DNA of 64,000 nucleotides from Anolis carolinensis (taxonomy: Eukaryota): assembly GCF_035594765.1 (NCBI RefSeq), contig NC_085842.1:276009749-276073748 (forward strand), in the 5' to 3' direction. Below the pieces are notes generated by a model that was not told the DNA's origin, ran no database searches, and saw only the letters and a list, made by a program, of their open reading frames with translations. Shown one piece after another: positions 1-36,687 of this stretch. Position numbers and translations under genes: made by a program. Numbering within the stretch: position 1 is the first letter of the stretch; every line of letters begins with the position of its first letter.

Positions 1-2044
1 AGTTTTACTGTCTCTGCTGTCAGTAGATAAGAAATATGGTTTTAAATTAATGTATTAGTGCATGATTTTAAGATGATCCCATTCCTAAAAAATACTGCTA
101 AAAAGAATATATTGTTGTAATACATTTTCTATAGCAAATAATTTCCTCACATGAAAGAATTAAATTTATTCTCCTAGCCAAAGGAAAAAGACAAATTCTC
201 AAAATGCAGTCAGAACAGATCCAGGTAATTTCATTTTCCTTCTCGAGAATGACCACTGCTGCCCCACTTCCAGTCTTCCAGGCCAATGCCCACGACTCCT
301 CCCAAAATACTGAAGACTGGAAATAGCTACAGTCCACCTTCTCTCAACTACAAAATGAAAGGATCTTCGATGGGGAAAGAAATAATGCAAAGAGCTATGA
401 AAAGTTAAGTTTTGGGCCACATCTCCCAGAAGCCCCTGGTCAGAATGGTCAATATACTACAACAAATATATATTTTCCATGCCCTGTTCATAAACTAGCA
501 GAGCCTACCACTAAACACTACCACAAAGAGATAGCAGATAAGTCGTCTCATTATGCAAAACTTTCTGTAAACAAAGTCAAGAAAACCTCCAGAAACTTAA
601 ATTTAGAAGGGTCTGTGAATAATTGTGTAGTCACTGCACAGCATTAAACACATTTCAGTGAGGTTTTTTAAATGGCAACCTTTACAGATTGTTTCACACG
701 TTTATAAAAGAGGCTTATGTGTCAAAAAGAATTTCTTTTCTAAGAAATAATCTTTGCAAAAGTTCCCGTTCCAGGCTCCAGTTTGCACAGCTGAACGAAA
801 AGAGAGCCAAGAGCTACAACAAAAATAAATTTACACATTTAAAAATACAACTTATTGCCTAACATTTTTTGTACATTAATCTTCAGTCATACTTGTTTGT
901 ATAATGGCCTTCATGCTGCACCCAACAGCTAGATTAACGAAGTCCATGATACTGGGTTAAAAGCAAGCAGAACTCAATATTAATGTACTAAGGAAATATT
1001 AATGCTTTAATTTTGCTACCTATACAATCTTGCAATGACTTCAAATAGCAGCAGATAAATGAAGAAAAATGAAGGCACATTCTTTGCAGAAACTCATTAA
1101 ATGTTCACTTCCTTGCCCCCTGAGGGAATCCAATAGCCCACGGAAAAAACAAATATTATGAAACAGGCCTTAGACAATTTTGACTTCAAGACATTTGACC
1201 ATCTGTAGCACACAGTATTGAATGAGCTGCCAGATTATTTTAGTGACCTAATGTACTTTCCCAAGCACAAGATCAAATTGTTCCAAGATGAGCCAATTGA
1301 AAATGAACAATATGCAGCAGATTGGTTGTTCTACTAGAAACCCCAAAAGAATTGGTTAAATCCAAAAAATACCGTCCCACAAGAAATTGTCTGCTTGAAA
1401 GTCTGCTCTCCACTCAGCAAAGACTTAAAGCCAATATGTTTGTAACCCAGGCGACCCATTTTGGAAGAAGGAGAGCTGCTAGAGAAGAAATGTTGGAATT
1501 GTGCTAGTGTGAGCCATGTATGTAATGATCTCAGTAAAGGATTAGGATGTAGCAGCAGCAAGAGAAGGGTGTCAGTTCTGTGCTACCTGGCTACTGGGAG
1601 GGGATCCTCAGCCCAAAGGCACTTTGGAAGGATTGATTCAAATGGCACAGTCCTCCAATTATTGTTGAACTACAGTTCCTAGCATTCCTCCTCACTGGCC
1701 AAGCTGGCTTAAGACTCTGGCATGCCAATAGTATTTTGAAAGATGTTTGAGCCCCATAGTCATCTGTGGCATAGGATAGATAACTGCCTAAGTCATACCC
1801 TTCAGAGTATCTTGGCTGTGGGGACGACTCACCACACATGAAAGCCAGGGATTTGGAATATAGACTGTAAGGGCTGGAAGCTTTCTGCTACTGCCACCTT
1901 TGTCACATTTTTACTGCTGCTGATGTACCTGCAGCTTTTTCATTCTGGTTGCCAGTGTGCCTTCAGTTGTCTGAGCTGCTGCTGGCACTATTGAGAAAGC
2001 TACATAATTCAAAGGTGCTACTGTATTTTTAAAAGTATTTTCAT

Positions 2045-3190
2045 GCTAAATCAGACTAACATGGCTATTTTGTAAATATCTGTTCAGGGTGTTTGGCAAT
2101 TTAACCTGATTTTCCTTGTATGTTCCAGATTCAATGTGTGTAGCCACCTAGCCGGTCTCAGGACTGCTTCCAATGGATGCAACCATAAGGGGATTTTTGG
2201 CTCTATCCCCTTCTTATACCTTTTCCATGTTGCTAAAAGGTTGGCTCTTATTATACGTGCATTAAATCCTTTATTCACCCTGTCCTTTTCATTCCAGATA
2301 GGCATGCCATCTATATCTTAAATTATGACCCTCTAGCTTAAGTATCTCCTTATTATCCAGTTTAATCCAATCCTTTAGCCAGCTAAAATCTGCAGCTTCA
2401 TAATAGTATGTGAGATCTGGCAACACCAGGCCTCCCTCTGTCTTTCACATCAATAAGGTTCCGGTAGGCCAGTGATGGGCAACCTTTTGAGCTTGGTGTG
2501 TCAAAATTCGCCAAAAAACCAAGCATAACTTGTGTGGTGTGTCACTTTTAGAAAAACCCCATAATTTTGCGATATTTATAGCTTGAATAACAAAAATGTA
2601 TAATTGTAACAATATTTAATACAGTGTTCCCTCACTTATGGTGGGGGTTACGTTCCACGCCCACTTTGGAGGCCGGTGGCGGCTCTCACTCCCTTTCCTC
2701 AGCTCCTCTTCCCTTCCCTCGCTATGCCTGGATGACGCTCCCCCTCCTTTTCCGCTCCCTCATCCGGGGCTTTGGCCACTCCCCCCGAACTGAGGCAGTG
2801 GCCTGGCCTGGTGGAGCCACTTTTGCCGCACTAGCGGTGACCGCCACATTACAACAAATGTTTCATCCTCGGCTACTGCAGCTGGCCATGCAGGAGCCAA
2901 GGATGAAACATCCTTCTTGGCACACAGCCGTGTGTCAGCAAAAATGGCTAGGCATGTCAGTGCTGACACGCGTGTCATAGGTTCGTCATCACTGCTGTAG
3001 GCGATTCTGGCTTTTTTTGCCTTTCCAAATGTATTGGACCAGATTTTTCTTCCATTTTTCAAAAACCTTTACCCTCTTGGTAATCTGTAAATTTTGAAAC
3101 AGAAACAACATTTTGGGTAGAACCATCATTTATATCACTGCTACCCTTCCAAACGAGATAAATTGAAGTCTTTGCCAATTGTTTTATATT
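2045..3190 (-). mobile_element. L1-clade LINE ORF2 fragment, split by a hAT MITE
   Basis: MMVLPKMLFLFQNL...YIWKGKKARI then LVLPDLTYYYEAA..WLKDW, with stops and frameshifts. Confidence 0.8.
2470..2994. mobile_element. hAT non-autonomous DNA transposon
   Basis: TIRs CAGTGATGGGCAACCT / CAGTGATGACGAACCT; 8-bp TSD CGGTAGGC/CTGTAGGC. Confidence 0.88.
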
Positions 3191-3662
3191 CTTGTGTTTT
3201 ATTGAAATTATGTTTGTTATTTTTGTTATTTTCAACTATGTTTTATTTTAACCTGTGTTTTTGCTTTGATTGATTGTTCGTATTTGTGTTTATGAGAATT
3301 TTGTCCCACATGTAAGCCGCCTGAGTCCCATTTGGGAAATGATGGCAGGGTATAAGAATAAAGTTATTATAAAGTTATTAACTTTCAAGATCTCCTTTGA
3401 TCTCCTACCATATTTTATCATAATTGTCTCACCTGTTGCATTGCCATATGCCGAGAATAATTCTGAGCCTTTACCAGGGCTTCGGCTGCCCTTTTAGCAC
3501 GTTGCTGGGGGGCACCCTTAGGAAAGCCTGGAAGGATAGCAAGCACGTTTTCAACAGTGAACTCTTGGGTCAAGGAACTCTTCAGGACTTCCTGAAAAAC
3601 ATTGGGGAAAAGCTCACTTTACAAAACAATATTTTTTAAAAGATATACATCTCTTCCCATGG

Positions 3663-3864
3663 CCAAAAATAGAAATAGACAACTCTCCTAGATAAAGTTA
3701 AATTCTAGGCAGTGTTAACATATCTGTATAACATGAAATCAGACTTGGATAGACAAATTACATGGGAGGACATTTCTTTTTCTCAATCATTCCCAAAAAT
3801 AGAAACAGATAACCCTCCTAGATAAAGTTAAATTCTAGGCAGTTTTACATATCTGTATAACATG
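3663..3864. repeat. Local direct duplication of about 72 bp (3663-3734 and 3793-3864)
   Basis: ccaaaaatagaaa.aga...cctagataaagttaaattctaggcagt..tacatatctgtataacatg occurs twice. Confidence 0.85.
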
Positions 3865-7400: not shown

Positions 7401-8991
7401 TGGGCTGGCTCATGTAACATCACAGTGTCATTGGTTTTTGTTGTTGCTGCTTCTGCTGTTTTTGCCACTCGCAAAGACTATACTGGAAGCCAACAATTAC
7501 TGAATCTCAGAGTGTCTTGCTCCACAGGCTCAAACCTCCTTGCAGACTCCATTTCATTTATTCCCAAATGTCAGCTGCAAGGAGTAAAGCTGAAATATGG
7601 ATGTTGAAAGGGAGATAGAAGGAAACTCAGCCCTAAATAAAGCAGACTGGACATTTAGTCACCTATTTAGGTGACTAAATGAGATTAATTTTATTATTTT
7701 CTTAAAGAACTAGCACAAATTTAGGCCTATACAATAGGCATATAATGACACTATAAACCAGCATCATCCTATAAGGCAAAGCTTTCCAAACATTTCATGT
7801 TTGTGACATGCTTTTTAGACATGCATCATTTTGCAACACAGCAATTCAGCTTTACTAGCAAACCAAAGGTTAAACCACCCCCTTATAAGAGATATAGGCA
7901 CATATATAAATTGTAATAACAAAATGGATGGGGGCATAACATATCCCATGAAAACCTTTCATTTATATTTTTTAAAATATATGATTTATAAGATAATAAT
8001 ATACTATACATTTCCAAGATTTTCCAGGGGGAATATGCGAGGACATCATACTAATTGGCATCTTTGCAACATCAAATTGCAAGCAAGTTGGTATTTTTTT
8101 ATTTCACATAGACTCAGAGGTTTCCTGTTACATTCGCACAACACACTTACACACGGCAGCTGACACATTAATGTATTGTGACATACAGTTTGGAAAGCTC
8201 TGTTATAAACTGAGCTTCAGACACCCTCCATGTACCGGTGAGATGTGTGTTTTACAAACAAAAAATAGCTGGGATAGGAATAGTCCCAACCAATACACCT
8301 CATTTGTACTAGTTACATGTTTCTGGAAAAAGGAAGCTGACAGCTCTTCAAAAGAAATGTTGCACCTCATGCAAACATGCGTTTCAGATACAGAGTGACT
8401 AGAGATTGTATAACACCTTCCGTTATGCATCCACTGCAGGACATAAGCATTTCTATAGCCGCAAATTTTTTAGAATTCTCTCTGGAGCCACAAAAAATCC
8501 CTCAGATTAAGATGATAACAGATTTTTTCCTGTTTAGATGAAGGTTAACCATAATTGCAGGTTCACTCATGGTCAAACAAGGGCTACAACTGCAGAGAAC
8601 TGACCAGTGGCCAGGCTTTTGTACTCGATCCTATCTGAAAAATAGTTAATTTGATAATAGATAAAATGTTTCTAATTCACAGTTGATTGATTACTATCTC
8701 CTGTCCCTAACAGTTCTCAAAAATGAAGTTCAAAAGTGAAATTTGAAAAAAAAATTCAAGTCTCAATTTAGAATAATTCCAGTGCTTGGGCTGCTCATTC
8801 CTTGTGAGTTGTAGTTCAGAAATTCCATTCCCAAATGGACTAGAAATTGTCTGCATCTCCTCACCAAACTGCATGTGTTGATTGTAACCTTGTATATGTT
8901 GCAAATGACTGCTCAACACAGCATAGCTTTCCAATATCTTTGTGTTCGATATACATTTGACCTTTAAGATTCCCAAATCAGTAATAAGACT

Positions 8992-9698
8992 TGTTCTGTC
9001 ACGCGCTGGGCCTGTGACTGACTGTCTGTTATGTAGGACATATGCTTTACGCCCAGCGGGAAGCCAGGGGCCTAAAAGAAGGGTCGTTGAGGAGTTTTCC
9101 TGAAAAGATGGCCTTGAAGTCTTTAAAGAAATAACAAAGTCTTTATTGACGAACAAATAATAAATCTTCAAGGAGTCTTGTCCCACAGGACAGGCGATAG
9201 GCTTTGAATAACTGTGAAAACCCTCTTATAACCCCTCCCAGGCTATCTGTTATCTGGGCCTAGCTAGTCTGGGACCCACTGCCAACTCCAAGTGCGTCTG
9301 GTTGTTGAGTGGACCTACCAGCCAATGGCTTGCAGATGTTTCTGTGCTGTTGTCGTATCCCTGGACAGTCAATATCCCTGGGGTTCTTTAACCTTGGTGC
9401 TCTTTATCCCCGGTGGTCTTTAACCCCGGTGGTCTTTATCCCTGGAGGTCTTTAACCCTGGAGGTCTTTATCCCTGGTATTCTTGAAATAGGAAGCCTTT
9501 TACGGGACGAGTTGGTTTATGTCCTACAGCTGAGCTTCCTAAGAGAGACTAACTTAAAAATGGCTCCTTCCCTCCCAGAGCCCTGAACAGGGGGCAGAAC
9601 CAAACTTAATGGTGACAGACAGGTGGCCTGTCCTATGGCTGCAAACATTTGCAGCAAGAAAGTAAAATAGAAGGTTCTGGTACAGCTGTACCAGCACA
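8992..9698 (-). repeat. 3' LTR of BEL/Pao element
   Basis: Direct repeat of 14729-15435 with three substitutions seen by eye; preceded on the minus strand by purine-rich AGGCCAGGAG (PPT position). Confidence 0.96.
9374..9485. repeat. 16-bp tandem repeat x7 inside BEL LTR (second copy 15111-15222)
   Basis: Units a(t/a)ccc(c/t)gg(t/a)ggtcttt, alternating AT/AA starts. Confidence 0.9.
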
Positions 9699-9771
9699 CT
9701 CCTGGCCTAGATTTCTTAATGATGAGAAATCTACACTAAAACATTAACAAACAAATTTGGCAATGAACTGA

Positions 9772-10326
9772 TTATACGTTCAACAACAACACAATATCAC
9801 AAATTGGTCTGTGTAAAACAGAAACATTGCCATTTTGGCACACTCTTAGTTTTACCTTCCTTACCAATCCGTCCGGACTTGGCAAGGTCTCTACAACTCT
9901 GGCCAAAGGCCACTTGAAACGAGGTAAGGATTTGTCTTTGAGAAGTACAATGTCTCCAACTTGGATGTTGGGTTTAGAGTCTTTCCATTTCCTGCGACTC
10001 TGAAGTTGAGCCAGATACTCTGCCTTCCAGCGTCTCCAGAACTGATTGGCAAGAGTTTGAGTTTGTTTCCAGAGTGCTTTGTGAGATCCTTCGGGGACAG
10101 GATACATTATCTCCTGCCATTCAGATGTCTTTTGAGTTAAAATGGATGCAGGAGTGAGAAGCTGTGGGTTGTCCGAATCTGTGGTGATGGGCACCAATGG
10201 ACGGCTATTTACAATGGCTGTCACTTCTGCCATCAAGGTGACCAAAACATCATGGGTCAAATTTTTACACTTTAAAAACATAGCATTTAAAATTTTTCTA
10301 CATACACCAATCATACGTTCCCACAC
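9772..10326 (-). pseudogene. BEL/Pao integrase C-terminal part, out of frame with the upstream ORF at a G13 run
   Basis: WERMIG, IVNSRPL, LTPASILT, FWRRWKAEYL..LQ.RRKW, WPLARV, DGLVRKV, RPI motifs; C run at 10326-10338. Confidence 0.9.
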
Positions 10327-13300
10327 CCCCCCCCCCCCATGTGAGACGCATGCGGTACATTAAACAGCCATGTAACCTTTTCTGAACTCAAATAACGGTT
10401 GACACTGTGGTCCTTGGCAAACTTAAAAACACAGTCTAACTCTTTGGTAGCCCCAACAAAATTTGTGCTGCAATTGGACCTGATTGTAATACCAATATGG
10501 GTAAAAGGAGGGTCAATCTGGGTTCTATCTGGGGGTAACTCTGACATGAGTTGGCTTTGGCAACTGGCTCTTAGCCTCTTGCATGTAACACATTTGTAAA
10601 TAACACTACTGACCAGCCTTCTAGCATTGACTAGCCAGAAACCTTGATTTCTCAGTGCCCCTTCTGTAAGGGCCCTGCCCTGATGCTGCACCTTGCTGTG
10701 AGCATAACGAACCAGCAAAGTGGCTAAATGGCCTTTAGGGATGATGATGGGGTTTTTGATGTAGTCCGAAAGCTTAGATCTATTTAATCTCCCACCCACT
10801 CTAAGGACTCCCTGAGAGTCTAGAAAGGGGTTCAACAACTTAATACAGCTGTCTTCAGGGAGACTGGCTCCCCTTTGAAGGCAGTCGACCTCTTTTTTAA
10901 ATGTGTCCCTCTGTACAGACCTTAAAATCAAATTTTCAGCCTTTAAAAGGTCTAAGCCTTGGGGATTGCCTCCCTTCTTGTGCACAGCTAAATGGAAGAG
11001 TCTGGCCACCATGCCCTTCAGTGTGGGCCAGCTTGAAAAGCGTTCAAAAATTGATGGATTCAAAGTTCCAAACAGCTTGCTGGGCTCTAGAGATGTGGCT
11101 TTGCAGGACTGAACCTCAGGAAGATCCGGCTCCTCCGTAAATGAAAAAACCTTTGGAAAGTCGGGATTGGCTAGACACTCTGGTCCTGTCAGCCAGGTGG
11201 AACTTAAAGTCTTGTGTGCAGTAGCATCACGAATAGTGATATTTTCAGGGTTGTCATCGGTAGTTAACTCAGATGAAACTCCTTGGCAGCATACAGAGAT
11301 GTGGCTGAGGCAACTCTGCATGAGGGTGACTCTGCCACAGCTGAGAATGTTTGGCTGATCTGGACACAAAGAAGATGGAGGATGCATTCTGTTGACACAT
11401 ACAGGTCCCTGTATGGTCCATCCTAAAGGAGTCTTCTGTGCCAAGGGTGCACCAGGAGGACCTCTCTTTTCAGCCCGGATGCTCATCAGGCTTGGGCAGT
11501 TGGATCCAATGAGCAGGACGATGTCGATGCCCGGCTCAAAGGGAGGAATGAGGTCCTGTAGTCCTTTCAGGTGAGGATGCGCTTGCACCACTTCTCTGGT
11601 AGCAATCTGGTCCTTGTTTCGTGGGATGGACGCACACTCAATAAGGTCAGGTAACTCAAAACGAATGTCTTTGCCACATGGCGAAATGATAAATCCAGAT
11701 GCAACACGGCCCTGTCTTCTTTGTTTGCCCATACAAGTAGAAATACAATAGTCAATAGTCTTTGCCTGCCCTTTGAAGAAGCTGAAGAAGTCAGGGGTGG
11801 CCAGTGAACTGTCACTTTGGTTGTCAAGGGCCACGTACATTCTCTTCTTCATCCATGGCTTGCTGGCGGGATAGACATCTGCCAAACAGATGGGGTGGCA
11901 AATCCTAGTTTTCTTTGGGCTGCCGCACAGCTGGGTGCAAGCCACAGGGGGTGCCTCAGTGCCCAATGAAGGTCCAGCCGAATCTTCTGGATGCACTTCT
12001 GGGGTGCGTTGACTGGTTGCTCCGCTCTTGGCCTTGAGGGGCACAAAATCCTTATCATGCATCGCTGAGCAATGTCTGACGGATTGACATACCTCGCATT
12101 TTACCTCTTCTTTGCATGACTTTGATTGGTGAGGGGTAGCACCACAGCACCTGAAGCAGATCCTGGATTTCTTGAGGATCTCAACTTTGTCTGGGTGAGG
12201 CTTTTTGGCAAACTCTCTGCAGCCGGCCAAACTGTGGGGCTTTGCGTGCAGTGGGCACAAAACTTCTTTTGGTGTCATCTTGGCATCAGGTAGAGATGGG
12301 ATGGTCTCCGTAGTCTTGACGGCGATGTTTCTTTTGGTGTTACTGTCTTTAGCAGGTTTCTTGGTTTCTTTGATGGGCCTATCCGTCCTTGGAGCCCCAT
12401 AAAGAGTTGGAAATCCTGTCTGTGGGTCATTAAGTTGCATGGCAGCATTTGTAACAAAATCCACAAGATGGGTGAATGGTGGGTAGACCTGATGATTGGC
12501 CTGCTTGTATCTGAAGACTTCCCTGCCCCATTCTTCCTGCAAGAAAAAGGGCAGTCTTTGAGTGATGGCAGTTTGGGACAAGTGCTGGTCCAGGCAGGCA
12601 AACCCTGGAAGCTGTGGGTTTCCCTTAGCCGACTGGAGCTCAACCAATAAGTCTGATAGGTCCCAAAGCTGTTCAAAGTCCTTAGGTTTGAGCACCGGGA
12701 ACTTATGAAGTCTGTCCATCAGCGAGGCTTCAATTTGGGTGCTGGACCCATAACGCTGGTTAAGCCTCGTCCATGCAGTGTCCAGTGCTCTTTCTGGTTG
12801 GTCGATGAGGGCTGAGAAGATTCTTCTCACCTGGTGGGCTGATGTTGGACCAAGCCAGGCAACCATAAGAGTTAGTTCCTCCTCAGAGGTGAGTCTTAAA
12901 TTCTGTATGGCACGCTGAAAGGTCTTCTTCCAAAGTAGGAAATCTTCTGGCCTGTCAGAGAATTTCTCCACACCTTTGTCCCTCAAATCCTTCTTCGGGT
13001 TTCTAAACAGAGACTCAAGCTGTGACTGAGGAGTCTGAAGAAACGGAAGGGGTTTTTGGTCAGGGGTAAAGGTGAAGTTCTTCTCAAAACTAGAAGGTCC
13101 CTTCAGAGGAACATCTGTGATCTCAGGTATGGGCGAAACCCTGGTTTCTATTGGCCTCGCAACCTGAGTTGGTGGCTCTGGGCTCCTGGCCCTGGATTCT
13201 TCGACCTGCCTGCGTGGCACGATGACGCTGTCCACCTGCACCAGCTTGTTGTCTTGGAAGCCATCGTGGGCTGGCAGAAGAGGTGTGCTTGGTGGTGTCG

Positions 13301-14141
13301 GTAGGCGGTTGACGTTTTCCTGAGACAGCTCTCCTTGCAGCGCCTTCGCCAGGATGTTGGCACGAACCCTCTTCTGAGCTGCATCTTGTTGGACACGTGT
13401 GAGCTTTAACTTTGCTTCTAATTCAGTTTGAGCCTGCTCGAAGTTCAGGCTTAGCTCTGCTGCTGCTGCCTCAGCTTCCGCCTCGAGGATCTTCTCCTGT
13501 AGCTCCATGCGCTTGGCTTCCTTGTTGTAGAAGGCCGCCATCGATGAGGAGCTGCTCCTTGAAACAGAAGATCCTGGCGTGGAGTCATGTCTGCTGTTTG
13601 ACTTCCTGCTGAGGTAGCTGTGCTTGCTATGGGCAGAAGCACTTCCCTGACCGCTCTTAGCACTCAAGGCCTTCAGGGAATGCCTAAGGAGCTCAGAACT
13701 CACACTATGAGTGGGAGAAGCTTGATCATCCCTTTCCCTTCTGGGGGAGGGGCTAAAGTCAGCTACATGAAACAGGTGTGCATAACTTAGCTCCCTATGT
13801 TTAACACTATTTAGAAACTGTAGAGCTCTAAGATCTGCTTCCTGGTTGTTTATTTTGCTAAGCACCTGTGTGATGCCATCCACTAGGGCTCTCCATTTGT
13901 TAATCAGAACCTTGAGATTAGCCCTGATACATTGAGACTCCCTACTGTCTTTAGAACCTTCTAGTTGACCATCAAGGTTAACAATAGAAAGCCAGACGCT
14001 TTCAGCCTTATTTGTCAGCTGAGCCTCTTCTAGCAAAAGCAGGTCTAAAGCCTTTTGGGTAGGATGAATTGAACCCTGAGATCTCAAACTATAAGCTTTT
14101 CCCTCTGATTTTGCAGAGCCTAGAGTATGAGCCATAATCAC
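10311..14141 (-). CDS. BEL/Pao Gag-protease ORF fused in frame to the RNase H tail and integrase N-terminal part; RT absent (1276 aa)
   Basis: Triple Cys/His knuckles CPLH..HSLAGC, CFRCC..HQSKSC, CEVC..HCSAMH; protease YVALDNQSDSSL; LLIG...TPLGWTIQGP; WLTGPECL; integrase HHCC H.KVQH...CVTC; no YVDD-type RT motif. Confidence 0.92.
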   Translation of the reverse strand: MIMAHTLGSAKSEGKAYSLRSQGSIHPTQKALDLLLLEEAQLTNKAESVWLSIVNLDGQLEGSKDSRESQCIRANLKVLINKWRALVDGITQVLSKINNQEADLRALQFLNSVKHRELSYAHLFHVADFSPSPRRERDDQASPTHSVSSELLRHSLKALSAKSGQGSASAHSKHSYLSRKSNSRHDSTPGSSVSRSSSSSMAAFYNKEAKRMELQEKILEAEAEAAAAELSLNFEQAQTELEAKLKLTRVQQDAAQKRVRANILAKALQGELSQENVNRLPTPPSTPLLPAHDGFQDNKLVQVDSVIVPRRQVEESRARSPEPPTQVARPIETRVSPIPEITDVPLKGPSSFEKNFTFTPDQKPLPFLQTPQSQLESLFRNPKKDLRDKGVEKFSDRPEDFLLWKKTFQRAIQNLRLTSEEELTLMVAWLGPTSAHQVRRIFSALIDQPERALDTAWTRLNQRYGSSTQIEASLMDRLHKFPVLKPKDFEQLWDLSDLLVELQSAKGNPQLPGFACLDQHLSQTAITQRLPFFLQEEWGREVFRYKQANHQVYPPFTHLVDFVTNAAMQLNDPQTGFPTLYGAPRTDRPIKETKKPAKDSNTKRNIAVKTTETIPSLPDAKMTPKEVLCPLHAKPHSLAGCREFAKKPHPDKVEILKKSRICFRCCGATPHQSKSCKEEVKCEVCQSVRHCSAMHDKDFVPLKAKSGATSQRTPEVHPEDSAGPSLGTEAPPVACTQLCGSPKKTRICHPICLADVYPASKPWMKKRMYVALDNQSDSSLATPDFFSFFKGQAKTIDYCISTCMGKQRRQGRVASGFIISPCGKDIRFELPDLIECASIPRNKDQIATREVVQAHPHLKGLQDLIPPFEPGIDIVLLIGSNCPSLMSIRAEKRGPPGAPLAQKTPLGWTIQGPVCVNRMHPPSSLCPDQPNILSCGRVTLMQSCLSHISVCCQGVSSELTTDDNPENITIRDATAHKTLSSTWLTGPECLANPDFPKVFSFTEEPDLPEVQSCKATSLEPSKLFGTLNPSIFERFSSWPTLKGMVARLFHLAVHKKGGNPQGLDLLKAENLILRSVQRDTFKKEVDCLQRGASLPEDSCIKLLNPFLDSQGVLRVGGRLNRSKLSDYIKNPIIIPKGHLATLLVRYAHSKVQHQGRALTEGALRNQGFWLVNARRLVSSVIYKCVTCKRLRASCQSQLMSELPPDRTQIDPPFTHIGITIRSNCSTNFVGATKELDCVFKFAKDHSVNRYLSSEKVTWLFNVPHASHMGGGGCGNV

Positions 14142-14728
14142 AAATTAAGCAAACAAAATGGCAATGCAGTTACAAAAGCACACTCAAAACTTATTACTTT
14201 AAAGCAAGAAATAAGAACACAGCAATAAATCAGTTGCAAACAAACTCCTGCAAGCACCAAGGAGTTTGCAAAACCCCTTTTGCAGGCACCTGGTAGATGA
14301 AGTAGCAAGCACTGTGCAGACTTAGTCCTGATGCTACTGGAACAAAATGTTGCAATTTGCTGTGGAAAGCTTGCTTCTGCAGAGCGAATGTAGCAAATGC
14401 TGTGCAGGACTTGCTTCAAAAAGGGCGGGAAAGGCTTGCTTCTGTTGCTGGATCAAAATGTTGCAAACTGTTGTGGAAGGCTTGCTTTTGCAGAGGCTGC
14501 TGCAAATGTAGCAAACTTGGAAGAAAGGAGGAATGCACCGGCCCCTCCCTTCTGGTCACATGGGCTGTCTTCCAAGATGGCCGAAAATGCAGGAACACAT
14601 TCACATGGATAGCAGGTAATGGAGGCTTGGAATGGTCCTGAACTGGCTCCCTTATGCACTGTCTTTTAGCTTTTTCAAGTCCTTTACTTTACTCCCGGGT
14701 GGCAGAAGCCACCAGCTCCCTATTTCAA

Positions 14729-15435
14729 TGTTCTGTCACGTGCTGGGCCTGTGACTGACTGTCTGTTATGTAGGACATATGCTTTACGCCCAGCGGGAAG
14801 CCAGGGGCCTAAAAGAAGGGTCGTTGAGGAGTTTTCCTGAAAAGATGGCCTTGAAGTCTTTAAAGAAATAACAAAGTCTTTATTGACGAACAAATAATAA
14901 ATCTTCAAGGAGTCTTGTCCCACAGGACAGGCGATAGGCTTTGAATAACTGTGAAAACCCTCTTATAACCCCTCCCAGGCTATCTGTTATCTGGGCCTAG
15001 CTAGTCTGGGACCCACTGCCAACTCCAAGTGCGTCTGGTTGTTGAGTGGACCTACCAGCCAATGGCTTGCAGATGTTTCTGTGCTGTGGTCGTATCCCTG
15101 GACAGTCAATATCCCTGGGGTTCTTTAACCTTGGTGCTCTTTATCCCCGGTGGTCTTTAACCCTGGTGGTCTTTATCCCTGGAGGTCTTTAACCCTGGAG
15201 GTCTTTATCCCTGGTATTCTTGAAATAGGAAGCCTTTTACGGGACGAGTTGGTTTATGTCCTACAGCTGAGCTTCCTAAGAGAGACTAACTTAAAAATGG
15301 CTCCTTCCCTCCCAGAGCCCTGAACAGGGGGCAGAACCAAACTTAATGGTGACAGACAGGTGGCCTGTCCTATGGCTGCAAACATTTGCAGCAAGAAAGT
15401 AAAATAGAAGGTTCTGGTACAGCTGTACCAGCACA
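14729..15435 (-). repeat. 5' LTR of BEL/Pao element
   Basis: Near-identical to 8992-9698; minus-strand CATAAA (15253-15258), TATAA (14963-14967) and AATAAA (14879-14884). Confidence 0.96.
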
Positions 15436-18400
15436 AGACTCAACATCTAATGCAAGACACATGAAGCAATGCAACTGCTCCCAGAAATTCCAGCACTAAA
15501 AAGGAAAAGATCAAGTTCTCTAATAAATGTATGAACCCTGTCTGATTTTATATAGAAGTCATACAATATAAAAATATTATAGCACAATTTCACCACTTGA
15601 TAAATTTATTGGAAAATCCATTAGCACTAAAAAAAATCTTGCTACATCACTACATCAAACTAGTGGCAGAAAGCATCAGCTGCAGTTATTAATTTCTCTT
15701 TATTTGGTTCTTACATTGCAAAAGTATAGGCTTATTCATGAGACTTCAGAGAAAAAAACATTCTTCTATCCGTTCATGGAAAAAAACAAAGGGACTACTA
15801 AATAATTCATCACAGCCACCCACTTACCAGGATCTCTCTAACCTAAGGCACTAAATGCCCTTGCTTACTAACACCATAAATAACTGTTCACAACCCTCTA
15901 GAGAAGGTTAGGTGCATGTGTTCTCATATAGGGTGGGTATTACATTAAAAAAAACCAAATTACAGATAATTAGGCCTCCATATATGTTAATTATTCATTA
16001 ATACCTTTTTTGCTAGATCAGTTGATTCAGGCGAGCATCTTTTAAAAAAAAACATGCTCAGTCACAGTTCATACCAGCAACCTAATATGCACATATATGA
16101 ATATAATAGACTATATATTGTAGTAGATGAGATTTATATACTGTACAACGAATATTCTACTATAGGTTTTTGAAACAGTAATAAGAAATTGATGCTCCTT
16201 TTCAAAACCAATTTAAGATCACTTAACAAAACAAAAACAAAAAAAACAAGCCAGCTTCTATATTTTAAACATGAGTATACAAGATTTCTGAAAGCCACAA
16301 TGCTTCCTGTAGGATAAGAGGGAGTACTTGCCTTCCTCTGGGTAAAGGTAAGTTTGATATGCCAGCAGTGCCCATGCTCAAATATTACTATGGGCATTCT
16401 GTGCTTTGTAATTCCATTTGCTTGCTTTTCAGGTACTCGAGCTGGCTGCATGAATACTTCTCATGCTAGACAGAGGACTGGAATAATTATTTTTGACACT
16501 GCTAATCACTTACATGGAACATGAAGAGGGTTGGAGCAGACAAAATCAACCTTCACCTTCCAAAAATAGGCAAGTTCTCCCATTTAGATCCAGTTGACCT
16601 TACAAGTCCCTACAAAACCACCAAAGTGGGGGACTAACATCTGTTCTTTGCAACTCATTCCCACAAATATGGTGAGATATATTACAATAAAAGTAACTCT
16701 TTTTCATCCACTATAGAAATAATCTTGCATTCCACATTTATAAGACAGACATAGGTGGCAGGCCACAGTCCATCCTAACATGGGAGGAAACAGTCTCCTT
16801 TTCATAATCATGCAGTCATCAGTTACAAGTTTCCTCTAAATTTAAAAGGGTGAGGTAAGCTTTTGTGTACTTTAGCTTCATTTGTAAGATAATCTTCATT
16901 GGCTGAAAGCCAAAACCTTGCCTCAACTTTACTATTTAAGAAGCTTCTTTATTGTTTCCAACAATATTACAGAAGCTTGTTTCTGGAGCTAACCACAAAA
17001 CATGTTAATTTCTGAAAGTATATTCATTGTTCAGTCTCCATGGCATCAACAAAAACATCTTCAAGTAGTTGCTCATTAGTGATGCTCAGCACAATAATTC
17101 ATAAGAACAAATATTTGTATGCAGTTTAGATAAATCATTTTGTCTATTCAATTAAATGTCAGAAATTACCAATCTGTGTATTAATCTTTTCATTTCTAGA
17201 GTCATCTAAATTGTTCACAGCTCAGCGCACTGACATCACTCCCAGGACTGACAATGCTACTGACTTTTAAGTCAAGATATGTAGTATTTGACCTCAACTT
17301 CTAAAAACTGGAGCCTCGGGGTAAACTAATACCAGCACACCTGGGTTTTTTTCTGATCAAAGAAGCCTGGGGAAGAAATAGTTTTGAATAGAGAAATTGT
17401 GCAGGAGAATATATTTAACCCTTTTTCCCATGGTCAATTTTTGGTTCTAGACAGAACTGGCTGTTGTACATCGAGAGGTTTCCCCAAGATGTTTTGACCA
17501 CATTTCCTCTAGTTTGAAGCCATCAAATGTGAGAGAAAATACGGGGGTAGTTTTCTAGGCTGTATTACAAAGCAGTGTTTCTTTAAAAGGCATTGTTAGG
17601 TCTAAATTATACACACTTGTATGTTACATATAATTTATTTCTCAGGTTTGGTTTATATATGGAAAGATCTGATGCATCTCTCAGAAATGTAGTTTGCTCC
17701 TCACACAGTTTATATACTGAAAGAGTGGATGTATCTCTATGGAAAAATATTTGCTCATCTCTAGAGACTACCTAGGATCTACATGAACACAATTGTTCAA
17801 ATGGTTTTAATTCACTAGTTGTCAACAGAAGAATATCCAGATGTGCAGTGGTTTTTTTTTTCATAGTGAAAGGTTCTCTTCAGGGCTGGATTATCACTTC
17901 TACTATTGAAGTAAATGTGTCAGGGCTCTCAGTGACAATGCCACCCATCCTGCTGCTGGCACTACGCACATGCATATACAAGCTGTACAGAAATGTTCCT
18001 AGGAATAGAGAAGTAGGAGTATAGGCATCTCTTCCAACCCTTCCCAAAGAGTCCCCACCCTGGACGCATTTTCCATCTGCAGAGTAAATAAAGAGTGTGT
18101 TGGGGTCACTTCCTTGGCCATTCTGCCCTCCTCTTAACCTGGCAGCAATACCAACATGCCACAACATGAAGCTGCCACACCAACAGCAGAATTTGAGCAT
18201 TAGTCCAAAGGGGGTTCTAGCTTAGAAAGTGATCCAGGACCCGAACCACCTCAGTCTAGCCCCTTTTCACTTAATAAGAATTCTAGACAGGATTTTCCCT
18301 ATTTAACAAGCAGAGTGCTGTTTTAATTCCAATATTCTAAGAATTATTTCTGCAACTGCAGTTAGGTATAATGTTGCTTGATAACACAAACCTATCTACC

Positions 18401-26201: not shown

Positions 26202-27407
26202 CTAGCTTGGAGACCCGGCGATGCCCGGGTCATTTGAGAAAGGCATTGTTTGCCTGTGTTCCAAGTGTAGCCTATATCCAATGTCAGCTGGGTTCAGTGG
26301 GTGCGGGTGAGCTCCAACTCCCATATGCAAGTCCCATCGTCCAGTGTCCATCTCCCTCCAAACAGAGCCAGTATGAAGAATAGGTCATGAGGGCTCCATG
26401 TACCATGTTTGGTCTTGATCAGTCATTTGTGTGGGTCGCGGTGCTCTCAGGAAGTGAGTGAAGGTATTGGAAGTCCCATCGTCCATGGTCCATCATCCTC
26501 CAAACTGCACCTGGGTGTAGAGTGAGTCATGGGTGTTCTCTGTTTGAAGTTTGGTCTTGATGAGACATTGATGGGGGTGACAGTGGTCTCAGGAAGTGAA
26601 TGAATATACTGCAAGTCCCATCATCCAAGGTCCAAGCTCTTTCAAATCTCACCAAGATGTAGAGTGGGCCATGGTGGCTCTATGTGCCAAGTTTGGTCTT
26701 GATCAGTCATTGGTGGGGGTCACAGTAGTCCCAGGAAGTGACTGAAGATATTGTAAGTCCCCTCATCCCCGGTCCCTCTTCCCCCAAACTGCACCAGGAT
26801 GTAAAGTGGCTACCCTGCACCTACGTGTCTAGTTTGATACAGTTTTGTCATTCATGGGCATCACAGTGGTTTGTGGGAGGTGAATTGGATGAATGTACTG
26901 CAAATCCCATAATCCTTGGTCCACCCTCCGTCAAACTGCTGCAGCATGTGAAGTGTGTCATTTGGGATATGTGTGCCTGGTTTGGTTCAGTTCTGTGATT
27001 TGTGGCAGTTGCTGTGGTCTCAAGAAGTGAGGGAAGGTACTGCAAATTCCATCATCCTTGGTCCATCCTGCCCCAATATACATCAGGATATAAAGGGGTC
27101 GACAGGAGTTCTGTGTGCCAAGTTTGGTCCATTTCTATCATTGGTGGGCATTGCAGTAGTCTGTGGGAGTTAAAGTGTTTGAAAGTACTGCAAATCCCAT
27201 CATCTGTGGTCCATCCTCCCCCAAATGGCAGCAGGTCATAAAGTGCATCGTGAGGATGAAGTGTGCCAAGTTTGGTGCAGATCCGTCATTCCTGTTGGTC
27301 TCAGTGGCCTGGGATAGTGGCGGCCAATCAAAACGCGAGCACATATTCCGCCAGGCCAATCAAAACGCTGATACATACTCCGATTTCACTTTTATTATAT
27401 ATATAGA
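26202..27407 (-). mobile_element. Non-autonomous Helitron with about 142-bp internal tandem repeats
   Basis: Minus strand 5' TCTATATAT..., 3' hairpin (26213-26230) then CTAG, inserted at A|T; about 7 repeats anchored on gtttggtc. Confidence 0.82.
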
Positions 27408-29540: not shown

Positions 29541-29550
29541 ATTATTAGAG

Positions 29551-29786
29551 CAGGGGTCCCCAAACTTTTTAAACAGGGGGCCAGTTCACAATTCTTCAGA
29601 CCATTGGACGGCCGGACTATAGTTGGCCACCGAGCATAAATAATAATAACAATAATAATAATAATAGCAATAATAATAATAAAGAGGGTTGGAAGACCCC
29701 TTGGGCCATTGAGTCCAACCCCCTTCTCCCTCTGGCACCAAAAGCACAAGCAAAGCACCCTTGACAGATGGCCACCCAGCCTCAAT

Positions 29787-29841
<55 letters not shown>

Positions 29842-29944
29842 GAGGGTTGGAAGACCCCTTGGGCCATTGAGTCCAACCCCCTTCTGCCTCTGGCACCAAA
29901 AGCACAAGCAAAGCACCCTTGACAGATGGCCACCCAGCCTCAAT

Positions 29945-29987
<43 letters not shown>

Positions 29988-30229
29988 GAGGGTTGGAAGA
30001 GACCTCTTGGGCCATTGAGTCCAACCCCCTTCTGCACACGCAAAGCACCCCTGAGAGATGGCCACCTAGCCTTAATAATAATAATAATAATAATAATAAG
30101 GATTGTAAGAGAAGAAGAGACCCCTTGGGTCATTTAGCCCAACCCCCTTATACCCTTGTGCCTTGGGGGCCGGATAAATGGCTTCGATGGGCCGCATCCG
30201 GCCCCCGGGCCTTAGTTTGGGGACCCCTG
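29551..30229. mobile_element. hAT MITE carrying tandem CR1-3'-end + (TAA)n cassettes
   Basis: TIR CAGGGGTCCCCAAACT at both ends; perfect 8-bp TSD TATTAGAG. Confidence 0.93.
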
Positions 30230-30347
30230 TATTAGAGGATGGCTTGCCACTTTTGGGGGCTTTTATTGTGGTGTTTCTGCATGAAAGCAGGAGAGGGTTG
30301 AACTACATGGCCTTTGGGGGTCTCTTCCTACATCATCATCATCATCA

Positions 30348-30397
<50 letters not shown>

Positions 30398-30496
30398 GGC
30401 TGGGTGCCACTTCTGGGAGCTTTTATTGTGCTTTTCCTGCATGGGAGCAGGAGGGGGTTGGACTACTCTATTCTTACCTTTGTGGAGCATGCCTTC

Positions 30497-30878
30497 TCTT
30501 GAAATCCACAAGCATGAGGACAATTTCAACAGAAAGGAGGAAACCATGAAAATGAACAAAATCTGGCTACCAGTATTAAAAAAAACTCTAAAATCAGAAT
30601 AGTAAATAAAGAGCAAGACTCAAAAAGCAGGGGAATTTCAGACAAGAATCAATCAGTAAGTGGGGTTTATATATCTGTGGAATGTTCAGGGTGGGGAAAG
30701 AACTCTTGTCTGCTTGAGGTAAGTGTGAATGTTGCAATTGGCCACCTTGATTAGCATTGAATGGGCTTACAGTGTCAAGGTCTGGCTTATTTCTACCTGG
30801 AAGAATCCTTTGTTGGGAGGTGTTAGCTAACACCTCCCAACAAAGAATTCCCCCAGGCAGAAAAAAGCCAGACCTTGA
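30497..30878. mobile_element. Penelope-like element fragments (related minus-strand piece at about 58530-58750)
   Basis: EIHKHEDNFNRKEETMKMNKIWLPVLK resembles the GIY-YIG C-terminal end; internal inverted duplication 30776-30878. Confidence 0.7.
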
Positions 30879-31121
30879 ACGGAGGGTGAGGAGGAGGGGG
30901 GGAGCAAACACAGCCTACCTGGAACATGCCTTCACTCCCCTCACTTCCCACCCCTTGCCTCCTGTCTCTCACCCAGTATGGCAGGGACAACACAGGAGAG
31001 GAAGAGAAGGAGGGAGAAGGAAAAGAAGAGAAAGGTGAAGGCAAAGAGACTTGTGACTTTGAGAGCAAGAGAGAAGGAGAAGGGTGGCGCGCGAGGGAGG
31101 AGGAAAAGGGCGGCGCGCGAC

Positions 31122-31637
31122 TGTTGTGATGTTGTAGATTGAAGGGAGAGATAACACCAAGAGAGATCCTTTTGAAAAAGTCCGGTTTATTATTTCAGCT
31201 GAGACTCTGGAAGTGGAATCTGTTCCAAAAAGCAAACCAGAGCCCCCTATCAAGGCGTTGACCTGCCTTTTATACATTTTCAGACAAAGAACATGCTCCT
31301 ACATACATCTCATCATTCGTACGTCACTTCACATGCTTACATACATGGGCATAAATATGCACAATCAGCATTTTTCTGTCTAAGCAACCTAAAAGCTTGT
31401 AGCAAGCTAGAGACACCAATCCATCATGAGGCCTACTTTGACCTGTCTGCTCTCCTTCCATTTAGCTGTACTAGGAACCACACTGGAATGTAGAAGGCCC
31501 CCCTTCTCCCCCCTGTCCTGTCAGCTTGTGCATCCCAAAAATCTAACACAGAGAGAGAGTTTGATTTTTCTACATTTCACTGCTTCTAATGTGCATACAA
31601 TATATGTCTAAAATCCATTTTTTTCCATTCCTCATCA
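31122..31637 (-). mobile_element. Solo LTR (516 bp)
   Basis: TG...CA ends; TSD GCGAC/GTGAC (CpG decay); minus-strand TATAAAA near 31270 and AATAAA near 31186. Confidence 0.75.
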
Positions 31638-31993
31638 GTGACGAGAGGAAAGAAGAGGCCTTCCTCTCCTCCTCTCTCGAGGTGAGGGTTTATACTCAGG
31701 TATATAAAGTACTTGTTCTTTCTTACAATTCAAGACTTATCTAGTGAAATAATGAAGTATATGCACAGAGCAAAAGATAGCAACCCTGTTGATCAGCTCT
31801 TTCATAATGAAAAGATTATGGAAGGAGATAAAAACATTACCAATCCAGGCTCCATCTTGAAAATAACAAATAGTTGAGACTGTAGCTTAGAAAGAAAGTG
31901 AAGCAAAGAAGAAACCAATTCCAAGCCAAAAAAAATCCCCTACTATTTAGAGGAGAAGAATAGGGCAAATATAGCATTAGGATAGCTGTAAGG

Positions 31994-32740
31994 CAGGGGT
32001 CCCCAAACTAAGGCCCGGGGGCCACATGCGGCCCATCAAAGCCATTTATCCGGGCCCCGTGGCAGCGTGTGGTGCAAGGGAGGAGGGAAAGGTGCGTGCC
32101 TTTCCGGCCGCCTCCCTCGCCCAGTGCATGCCTTCCAAAGCTTTGCTTGTTTATAATGATATTTTAACTATTATTTAATTAATAATTAATTATTAAGGGG
32201 TGCTTTGCTAGTGCTTTTGGTGCATAAAGGCGGAAGGGGGTTGGACTAAATGGCCCAAGGTCTCTTCCAATTATTATTATTATTATTGACACAAAGACAC
32301 AGTATAACACAGCAAACAAGATATATATGCTGGATTTGGTATCACAAAATCACAAGTTTAACACTTCCCAAGCATTTAGGACTGTGTGATGTATGATGGT
32401 GATTATTATTATTATTATTAACAACATTGAAGTTGGGTGGCCATCTGTCAGGGGTGCTTTGCTTGTGCTTTTGATGCACAAACGTAGAATTGGGTTGGAC
32501 CAAATGGCCCAAGGGGTCTCTTACAACCCTCTTTATTATTTTTATTATGATTATGATTATGATTATGATTAACATTGAGGCTGTATTTGTTCCCATTTGT
32601 TTTGTTTTTTACTTCAAAATAAGAGATGTGCACTGTGCATAGGAATTTGTTTATAGTTTTTTTTTCTACTATAGTCCGGCCCTCCAACGGTCTGAGAGAC
32701 CGTGAACTGGCCCTCTGTTTAAAAAGTTTGGGGACCCCTG
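31994..32740. mobile_element. hAT MITE, same family as 29551-30229, opposite orientation; contains an R4 3' end at about 32288-32395
   Basis: TIR CAGGGGTCCCCAAACT; perfect 8-bp TSD CTGTAAGG. Confidence 0.93.
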
Positions 32741-34865
32741 CTGTAAGGCATGTGGTTAAGATAAAGGTATGTCAGTAATGTAAATTTGGGTATACTGTAT
32801 TAGTGCAGAAGAAAAATGAAAGGAAATGTAAATCGCTATATGGAAAATAAATTATTTAGTTTGGCCAAGATTATGCAGAATATTCCAGCAACTTCTATTT
32901 AAATACATGTCTTCAGCTTTAGAATCTAAGAACTTTAGAATCTAGAATCCAGATTGTTCTGTTCTATATCTTGCCCAAATGTGAAATCACAGTTATGTGA
33001 AATCACATGTACAATGAACTACAATAGACTTGACAACAAACTCCTCTGCAAATAAATGCAAAACAGCCTCAGAATATACCTAAAAATCTAACAGTTATTA
33101 ACCAATTTTCAGGGAAACAAACTACATTTAAATTTATTGAACCTTAACTCAAGCAAATGTGTGTATCATTGAAAATGCATTCATTGTCAGACTCAACGCA
33201 ATAAAATTACAAGGAAAGAGAATTACAGGCATGCTTAAGAAAATGCTGCATATAACTCCCTCTATGTTTCTGGAAGGTGACCTTTTCCCAAAAAATAAAT
33301 TAAAATTATGAAGTGCTCCAAGAATGCAAATGCATATTTGTCATTGCCTTTAGCATAACAATTGTAACAGAACATAGAGTTGTATATTGGAGATTTAATT
33401 GCAAAACTTACTGCATGTATGTTAATATGCAATGCAAACTCTTCTCAGCAGGTGTTCCATGTGATGAAGTGAGTTTCATGAATAATTTATCAAGAAAGCC
33501 ACTTCTGCCAAGATAAAATTTGCAACATTTTTCAAGTGAGATCAGTAAAAATCAGGAGTGATCACTGCCAATTTGTTCCAATCCGGATCCTAAAGGTCAC
33601 ACCCTTAAAACGCTACAGAGGTTAGAAATGCCCTTTTCTTCTTTTACATGTCAACCACCGACCCATTTAGAACACAAGACAGTGATATTTTCTAGACAAA
33701 TCATAAAAAGAAAACCATGGAAAGCATGGCTTCATATCCAATTGGAGTCAACATATTGTGTTTTTCTGGATTGCAAGTATATATCCCCCCCCAATTCCCC
33801 TCTGCCCCCCCCCACACCAAATCAAGTGATTATGCAGATGACCAAACTATTCTTTGTGAAGGACACACATCTGTGGTTCACTTCAGATGTAAAGTAGGAT
33901 GTGCGTACACTGCCCTTCCCTCCTCCATTCTGACTTGGACACAAAGAGGACATTGAAACCTTTTTAGCACTGCCCACGATTTATAATTCTGGTTTGTTTC
34001 AGTATTTTAGTGTATAGTAACAACAGTTTGTACTTTTCAGATATAATGATAAATCACTAATTAGTATTAAAAGGAAATGAAACAATGGTTTAAAGAAATC
34101 TTCATAGCCACACAGGAGAAGGAACAGAATGCATAGCACCCCAAGGCTCAAACAAGTTTGTATGTAAAACTAGATTATAGCTTAATTTTGTTTCTAAGGC
34201 CATACTATCCTAAATCACTTTTCATTTTGATATTATTAAACATTACTAAATATTATTTTTCTAAAAATATGCATTATCCAACTTTGTTTAAATACAATAT
34301 ACAAAAAATAAAAGTAAATTTCAATCATCTTCATTTTGAGAGTCATGGCAGTAATACTCAATTCTGAACCTCTAATATATGCTTACTGAGAGCTAAGTAA
34401 TATTTGAACTAACTCTCAGAAAACACACAACTTAAGATAATACATTACAATGTAGAGGACTCTTAACAGACAATAGAGTATTCACAAATAAGTGTAGCTC
34501 TCTGATTCACCTCTGTCATTCTCAATGTGATCTGACTGACAGAATCTGAGACAGAGATGGGCTAAAACTACTGCATTGATCTCTTCATGTATTGATTCAA
34601 CAAGCTTCTGTGATGAATGAGCAGGGCTAATATAAAAGCAATGGTACAAGAAGACAAATATACCAACCATGCTGTGTAACAAGACAAGCCAGTATAGAAG
34701 TTTATCATAATAGGATGAGGGGCAGGGATACATAAATATTTTTTAAAAATAAAAATATATAAATATTTGTAGACACAGCAGTAGGCAGTCATGAGTAAGA
34801 TGCCTGCCCCACAATCCTCACGTCAAATAGCCAACTAGTCAAATATAAATATACTGACACCACAA

Positions 34866-36288: not shown

Positions 36289-36687
36289 GATTGTTGTTGT
36301 TGTTGTTGTTGTTATTATTATTAAGGTTCCCTCTGGATTCTCTGTACTAGAAAATGTATTTCTCTGCCCATTCAATATAATATAGCTCATGTGGCTTTGG
36401 TATAATTGGCATAAAAGAAGTTACACTTACAAAAGTCACTTTTTGGAGGTAAGACAACAAGGTATTCTGTTGTCTCATTACTTAAACAGCTCTTGATTTC
36501 ATTTTTTAGTTGTAATATTTATACTTTTTATAGAAAGCAATAAGCCAAACATGATTTTGGAGATTTACCAGTAGAAAAGAGAAATAGATTTTGATACTAC
36601 ACTAATATATAAAAGTACAATAAAAATAAAAACATCCAATCAAGGCAAAATTTTGTTTGCTTACATTTCAGATTATTAAGCCCTTAC

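Follow-up and report, generated by a model that had tools for sequence, protein, structure and literature searches.

The window analysed here is a stretch of 64,000 nucleotides (nt) of the Anolis carolinensis genome (assembly GCF_035594765.1, NC_085842.1:276,009,749-276,073,748, forward strand; all positions below are those of the window). On its minus strand, at 15435..8992, it contains a BEL/Pao retrotransposon of 6,444 bp that lacks reverse transcriptase (RT). The two long terminal repeats (LTRs; 8992-9698 and 14729-15435) are each 707 bp long, begin and end in TG..CA and differ at 3 of 707 sites, and the 5-bp target-site duplication (TSD) AGACT lies at both flanks (8987-8991 and 15436-15440). 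Between them, the minus-strand frame 14141..10311 runs for 1276 codons without a stop. The features of the element are as follows.

8987..8991, no strand: left target-site duplication AGACT
8992..9698, minus: 3' LTR, 707 bp, TG..CA, containing 16-bp tandem repeats; AATAAA at 9147..9142
9699..9708, minus: polypurine tract adjoining the 3' LTR, read from the sequence
9772..10359, minus: C-terminal part of the integrase (DUF5641), in a second frame, from Pfam
10326..10338, minus: run of 13 G, the frameshift point, variable in length among contigs of other copies
10487..10491, minus: junction 2, where 63 amino acids of the integrase core, first catalytic motif included, are lost in frame; from alignment and contigs, and the same in gene model P0151
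10491..11265, minus: remnant of the RNase H tail, connection region and integrase zinc finger, from Pfam and alignment
11265..11266, minus: junction 1, where RT and most of RNase H are lost in frame, about 550 amino acids relative to the full-length protein P0009
11397..11936, minus: aspartic protease region, LDNQS motif at codon 772, from alignment
12048..12257, minus: triple Cys-His nucleocapsid region
12402..13001, minus: capsid-like Gag region, DUF1759 at E 1.9e-5, slightly short of the curated cut-off; 1 of 200 residues differs from gene model P0003
10311..14141, minus: long Gag-protease-remnant open reading frame (ORF), 1276 codons, first ATG at 14135
14136..14728, minus: 5' leader, 593 bp
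14714..14728, minus: primer-binding site (PBS) position, immediately 3' of the 5' LTR; no TGG start; complementary to an LTR segment
14729..15435, minus: 5' LTR, 707 bp
15220..15234, minus: predicted self-primer, a 15-nt LTR segment able to pair with the PBS position and having a twin at 9483-9497
15253..15258, minus: CATAAA, a hexamer resembling a TATA box and lying 24 nt ahead of the predicted self-primer, with a putative function
15436..15440, no strand: right target-site duplication AGACT

The initial annotation, made from the sequence alone, had described an RT-less BEL/Pao element keeping a long Gag-protease ORF across two in-frame deletions, and alignment and Pfam searches bear this description out; the 1276 stop-free codons and the three differences between the LTRs were also recovered. 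In the long ORF, Pfam detects DUF1759 (E 1.9e-5) and, weakly, an integrase zinc finger, and neither RT nor Peptidase_A17 was matched in the Pfam search of the element ORFs. DUF5641 (E 6e-30) lies in another frame, 10359..9772, which overlaps the long ORF at the 13-base G run (10326-10338); it is the shift of frame at this run that ends the long ORF. The assignment to BEL/Pao agrees with published descriptions. LTRs of Belpaoviridae measure 0.2-1.2 kb according to the profile of the virus taxonomy committee ICTV, BEL/Pao elements have TG..CA ends and a TSD of 4-6 bp (PMC12440569), and a triple Cys-His Gag is a hallmark of the group (PMC554778). The element has all of these, its domain order is collinear with that of full-length Gag-protease-RT-RNase H-integrase relatives with RT and RNase H deleted, and it carries the Pao-type domains DUF1759 and DUF5641, with Peptidase_A17 present in its relatives.

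Aligned with P0009, the ORF falls into three blocks, corresponding to reference residues 226-784, 1348-1625 and 1688-1738. The RT and RNase H motifs of P0009 (at 930, 1052, 1231 and 1307) all lie inside the first alignment gap, and the second gap measures 63 amino acids. The first break had been placed at TTDD|NPEN. However, the Anolis model P0003 is 95.1% identical to the element ORF over codons 3-958 and then enters RT, and one contig of public run X1 terminates at 11266. Thus the true break is 11266|11265, inside codon 959 and five codons earlier, and TTDD is already part of the RNase H tail. As annotated, junction 2 removes the first integrase catalytic motif, and its position can be refined to within 10487-10491. 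The SNCSTNF motif, read as decayed, is indeed altered: P0003 has the altered motif and yet keeps the integrase residues upstream of junction 2, indicating that the change is the older event. Since the first catalytic motif is gone, the second is altered and the C-terminal part is out of frame, we infer that the integrase of the element is dead. Siblings bearing RT or the integrase core exist (P0003 and record 2 of X1, respectively), so the junctions represent deletions from a longer form; these deletions probably arose by template switching of RT.

To see whether the deleted form is a family, contigs from four public runs (X1, X2, X3 and X11), belonging to four different studies, were aligned to 9510-15060, and a contig was taken to bridge a junction when it had at least 31 letters on either side. 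Junction 1 is bridged by five contigs in three of the four runs (two in X1, two in X3, one in X11); each of them departs from the window's letters at three sites close by, and two variants are present in X1 as well as in X3. Junction 2 recurs in the Anolis model P0151, in which 26 of 409 aligned residues differ from the window, and an X11 contig of 403 letters over this junction is identical to the window, with a short side below the 31-letter rule. Both junctions thus recur outside the window's own sequence, in contigs of public runs and in an Anolis gene model, which favours the earlier proposal of a replicating family rather than a one-off. Record 2 of X1 departs from the window at junction 2 and continues for 174 letters, with similar joint rows in X2 and X3; these records point to siblings that keep the integrase core. 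A rough hint of abundance comes from depth ratios relative to a record, in each run, that is diverged by 11-12% and taken as one locus: they stand at 10-13 in Gag, at 7-9 in protease, at 3.5-7 across junction 1 and at 2-3 in the form keeping the integrase core. Depth over the LTR exceeds that of the interior by a factor of tens, and in X3 there are 11 contigs that extend beyond the LTR end with an agreement of 0.43, i.e. into many unlike flanks. It is likely that the element belongs to a small non-autonomous subfamily sharing both deletions. The annotation also held that RT and integrase are borrowed in trans; the element has intact TG..CA ends and a TSD although its integrase is dead, which implies such a supply. 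Run X11 had been guessed to be an RNA run; it resembles the DNA runs, and no conclusion on expression is drawn from it. Imperfect direct repeats of about 52 bp occupy 14270-14500 of the 5' leader and are rearranged in contigs of other copies.

The second unusual trait of the element is its PBS. The ICTV profile gives tRNA priming for Belpaoviridae, with a PBS that pairs with the 3' end of tRNA-Arg or tRNA-Gly, a trait that is descriptive and not phylogenetic, and calls their replication poorly understood. Here the bases after the 5' LTR do not start with TGG, and by that criterion are not tRNA-like. They pair instead with the element's own LTR: the PBS position is complementary to the segment 15234..15220 over 15 contiguous nt at offset 0 when G.U pairs are allowed (14 with at most one G.U). 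Such a 15-nt pairing was reached by 5 of 2000 shuffled LTRs, a match of this kind occurs for 1 of 5016 internal 14-mers, which is the PBS position itself, and the duplex has a predicted energy of -21.6 kcal/mol against -15.8 +/- 1.8 in shuffles. Right behind the PBS position, at 14700-14716 (minus strand), is a short GC-rich hairpin that may assist a priming structure.

The same pattern was sought in 59 related loci, fetched from the best 80 of at least 357 matches. Upstream of the ORF 34 could be examined, and 26 had a boundary motif, which was chosen by eye where several matched. After L007, L009, L014, L048, L051 and L054 were dropped as members of the same families and L040 for an unclear boundary, 19 relatives and the window remained. 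Own PBS/LTR pairs of at least 11 nt occur in 13 of these 20 elements, compared with 1 of 372 swapped pairs. With relaxed G.U placement and widened LTR segments the figures are 15 of 20 and 6 of 372, the relaxed rule having been adopted after the stricter result was seen and the related elements not being independent samples. In five families (L010, L015, L019, the L049 family and L053) two LTR copies fix the LTR boundary independently, and all of these have matches of 11-13 nt.

Four relatives show a contiguous match of 12-13 nt, like the window. In nine others (L002, L003, L010, L015, L019, L023, L028, L049 and L053) a match of 6-9 nt lies right behind a pyrimidine-AG acceptor, and the bases preceding an upstream donor, GT(A/G)(A/T)G, bring it to its full 11-14 nt, so that removal of a predicted GT-AG intron of 90-418 nt from the LTR would create the PBS complement. 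In L002, L003, L010 and L028 the donor is the sole LTR position that completes the duplex (1 of 489, 237, 389 and 840, respectively). For the window's own primer an LTR intron was considered and rejected, since the match is unbroken and has no pyrimidine-rich acceptor in front of it. Primers without an intron may, as a conjecture, arise when a spliced 3' LTR copy is reverse-transcribed. From the pairing pattern, it is likely that the element starts reverse transcription from a self-primer, in the manner of Tf1, rather than from a host tRNA.

The nearest named relatives of the element are A. carolinensis RefSeq models. P0003 (XP_062830229) and P0151 (XP_016848197) are 92-95% identical to the element's proteins, and P0003 retains the first half of RT. 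RefSeq lists P0003 and P0132 as isoforms of host genes (a LINGO gene and teashirt 2), which would be chimeric transcripts or annotation artefacts. Two further anole families, B (P0004-P0007) and C (P0136), are 43-57% identical to the element and have RT-less models with junctions of their own. Taken together, P0004-P0007, P0123-P0134 and P0135-P0142 comprise RT-less models from multiple loci in these two families, with three different junctions: B1 is shared by all 5 members of one cluster, B2 by 10 of the 11 members that make up three clusters, and C by 7 of the 9 in another cluster. The RT motif YVDD is present in none of the B1, B2 or C models, and family B keeps an intact-looking integrase. 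In the frog Anomaloglossus baeobatrachus, a cluster of 35 Gag-protease-integrase models (the P0144 cluster) shares one RT-less junction in 15 of 15 listed members, on several chromosomes; both tested integrase motifs are present in 13 of the 15, and the 12 compared members of 1487 amino acids differ by 5-43 residues. Over the 187 fetched proteins with protease and integrase, a set biased to the queries and possibly including spliced models, RT is missing in 29. At the DNA level, one of the 38 metagenome loci that have both protease and integrase carries an in-frame RT deletion; this is L011, where the contig carries at 263-3850 a related BEL/Pao element with RT and RNase H deleted in frame.

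A quick capsid-protease tree of 54 rows, from which the topology alone was used (its RT and RT-less labels are wrong for at least P0003 and P0009), unites the anole BEL/Pao proteins, families B and C included, in one clade (SH-aLRT 100). It places the frog and icefish RT-less proteins outside this clade and the element among RT-bearing BEL/Pao proteins. Because the frog and icefish proteins fall apart from the anole clade, RT loss, as read from these models, is recurrent.

With its anatomy, the shared junctions and the PBS-LTR complementarity directly observed, the explanation that we favour, and hold to be fairly probable, is that the element is a young RT-less and integrase-dead BEL/Pao copy from a small non-autonomous subfamily, which supplies Gag and protease itself, takes RT, RNase H and integrase from a partner, and uses a self-primer. 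Transcription from the 5' LTR would yield a genomic RNA in which the LTR segment 15234-15220 folds onto the PBS position. This RNA would be translated into the Gag-protease-remnant protein and co-packaged with the Pol of a partner. The partner's RNase H would cut the duplex and free the primer, as in Tf1, the partner's RT would copy the RNA, and its integrase would insert the DNA, generating the 5-bp TSD.

Several observations weigh against this explanation. The autonomous partner that the annotation presupposed is absent from the protein hits listed, in word-index and full HMMER protein searches (best 120-150 hits in three). Among these hits only P0003 and P0151 are more than 60% identical, fragments matching the RT of P0003 are at most 53% identical, and P0003 itself carries the altered integrase motif and looks defective. 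The family is seen as contigs and gene models, and a further full-length copy flanked by a different TSD did not appear among them; contig depth does not equal copy number, some variants may be alleles of one locus, and X2 has no cover at junction 1. The junctions of the other families rest on gene models that are possibly spliced. As for priming, 4 of the 19 relatives (L001, L018, L020 and L032, two of them with short LTR cover) have no 10-nt match, and the predicted primer of the window lies 491 nt from the LTR end compared with 65-151 nt in the relatives. Finally, the silent excess described below is alike in Gag-protease and the pol remnant, and only 39 coding rows out of 339 differences enter the selection counts. 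In other searches no relative appeared among 12 pattern matches in viral_contigs, PDB sequences gave no match below E 0.2, Rfam returned a single chance-level hit on window positions 8500-16000, and ARAGORN found 0 tRNA genes in the window.

The strongest competing view is that the subfamily is passive: its RNA would be mobilised in trans, and the ORF would be an unselected leftover kept open by its youth. We consider this unlikely, though it deserves weight. The annotation had taken the stop-free ORF as a sign of selection for the translation of Gag and protease. As a proof this fails, since a neutral frame this young often stays open and a frameshift is in fact present: at the LTR-implied divergence of 0.21% per copy, a neutral frame would have no stop with a probability of 0.77, and neither stop nor frameshift with 0.45. 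The silent and replacement counts come from 39 coding differences (40 rows displayed of 339). Differences found only in the window (n=14, with about 11 expected from the LTR age) are 4 silent to 10 replacement, as under neutrality (p=0.6). Those shared among other copies (n=25) are 16 silent to 9 replacement (p=2e-4 against a neutral replacement share of 0.71), and the private and shared ratios differ with p=0.048. It is probable that both deletions were inherited within the family and that the present copy has since drifted neutrally. The predicted contrast between Gag-protease and the integrase remnant is absent (11:11 vs 9:8 silent to replacement, Fisher p=1.0). The silent excess in the shared differences is alike in Gag-protease (9:6) and in the pol remnant (7:3), and may therefore predate the deletion, having been acquired in autonomous ancestors.

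One point against a passive subfamily is the capsid. Compared with P0003, 1 of 248 residues of capsid and linker differs, whereas the remainder of Gag-protease has 46 differences in 708 residues (p=2e-5) and the integrase C-terminus 14 in 184 (p=4e-5); other domains differ by 4-8%. This conservation fits selection on the capsid, but could also reflect recombination with a donor or inheritance from autonomous ancestors. Moreover, both deletions are in frame, which by chance would occur 1 time in 9, and long open RT-less ORFs recur over loci in other families. Selection to keep Gag and protease translating is thus plausible and unproven; the silent excess is not specific to Gag and protease, and the capsid alone stands out.

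An improbable alternative to self-priming is that the PBS-LTR complementarity forms a regulatory or packaging hairpin, while an unrecognised host RNA, e.g. an internal tRNA fragment, acts as primer. This would agree with the tRNA-Arg/Gly priming given for the family in the ICTV profile and with the half-tRNA priming known in plant copia elements (PMC6317226), and the judgement that the PBS is not tRNA-like comes from the missing TGG at the boundary. However, the duplex starts precisely at the first base behind the LTR, and the PBS differs between families and co-varies in each with the LTR of the same element, a pattern that a fixed host primer could not produce.

A further rival is that the deletions occurred after insertion at a single locus, the junction contigs elsewhere being alleles of it. 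With 14 differences private to the window over 5 kb (0.3%), the divergence is of the size expected between alleles; a second TSD did not come to light, and the X1 depths are low. Yet P0151 has junction 2 and differs at 26 of 409 residues, junction 1 has a depth exceeding that of a diverged single record by a factor of 3.5-7 and, in X3, that of the integrase-core-bearing record by a factor of more than three, and two separate in-frame deletions within the age given by 0.2% divergence would be a rare coincidence, so that we give this view little credence. Still less probable is an origin of the RT-less form by retrocopying of a spliced subgenomic RNA instead of by template switching. A GT dinucleotide does lie two bases before junction 1, and the clade seems to use LTR introns, but the window keeps this GT and follows the RT-bearing path through 11266, and splicing would therefore require a downstream exon starting with identical letters; besides, junctions differ from family to family, several of them at short repeated residues. 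An assembly artefact can practically be dismissed: the G13 run may be mis-sized, but junction 1 is bridged in independent runs and junction 2 is present in an older public gene model.

The annotation had compared the element with the Gag-only LTR elements of plants. Like TR-GAG, it is a non-autonomous LTR element retaining Gag, but TR-GAG elements are shorter than 4 kb and code for Gag only (PMC4350172), whereas this one has 6,444 bp with protease and pol remnants and falls outside that group. With RT and functional integrase gone and a Gag-protease ORF kept, it has the structure of a semi-autonomous Gag-Pro element, and closer matches are wheat Sabrina_SA and mouse IAP 1Delta1. RLG_Sabrina_SA (WHAM) is likewise semi-autonomous, with a Gag-protease ORF and with RT and integrase missing; it differs in being a plant Gypsy element with thousands of copies and a partner, RLG_Wilma (PMC9744471), while here we have an animal BEL/Pao element with a few copies and pol remnants fused in frame. 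In IAP 1Delta1, too, an internal deletion has left gag and pol fused in frame as one ORF; that non-autonomous element depends on proteins supplied in trans, and its fusion protein is reported to aid retrotransposition in cis (PMC6466679); unlike this mammalian endogenous retrovirus, the anole element has a second deletion that removes the integrase core. A survey of BEL/Pao elements describes a 397-copy anole family, and the available portion of its text contains neither 'non-autonomous' nor 'primer' (PMC3118150).

In its priming the element resembles Tf1/Tf2 and the Tf1/sushi group, in which the PBS is complementary to RNA derived from the element's own LTR (PMC7175516, PMC6317226) and, in Tf1, RNase H releases the self-primer (PMC7175516). 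Self-priming has been described for Tf1/sushi, Tcn1 and TAR, and predicted for TAR copia (PMC6317226). In contrast to Tf1/sushi, where the initial 11 transcript bases act as primer, 15 nt would be used here with a putative start site, and in relatives the primer is predicted to be joined by splicing. The element does not belong to Tf1/sushi, a Ty3/gypsy chromovirus lineage, as its listed homologues carry Pao-type domains.

Elsewhere in the window, 53464-56708 (minus strand) holds a broken RT-bearing fragment resembling a long interspersed element (RVT_1, E 2e-26), which we take to be probably of the RTE/BovB type, and a zf-RVT match at 35785-36420 (minus strand) marks the tail of a non-LTR retrotransposon. 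The Gag-like ORF at 62798-63472 (plus strand), whose Atlas neighbours include SCAN, DUF1759 and retrotransposon-gag clusters (with lead-level scores), probably belongs to a separate LTR element. Tandem repeats of about 142 bp, and clusters of short, (TAA)n-tailed repeats in both orientations, occur at 26326-27310 and 29545-32746.

Among the titles and abstract openings searched, a scope outside which fall Repbase Reports and most subscription papers, there was no description of RT-less BEL/Pao families or of BEL/Pao self-priming. A broader reading, which we put forward tentatively and with somewhat less than even confidence, is that a whole clade within BEL/Pao self-primes, ancestrally by way of a spliced LTR intron, and that in-frame loss of RT and RNase H is, within this clade, a repeated, selected strategy (at least four independent deletions in anole families, besides frog and fish), in which RT-less copies would build particles, carry the primer and need only the Pol of a partner. 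The element described here would then stand late in this course, its integrase lost as well and its primer, free of an intron, already complete at the start of the transcript.

With these RT-less families, the least studied LTR superfamily would join wheat Gypsy elements and mouse IAP in showing the semi-autonomous Gag-Pro strategy. Since surveys based on RT overlook such families, the copy numbers and dynamics of BEL/Pao elements in lizards and frogs may be misread. The priming result counts for more than the loss of RT. If true, a self-primer that co-varies with the PBS and that, in many relatives, exists only once splicing has taken place would represent a novel route into reverse transcription, one that ties the mobility of these elements to host splicing.

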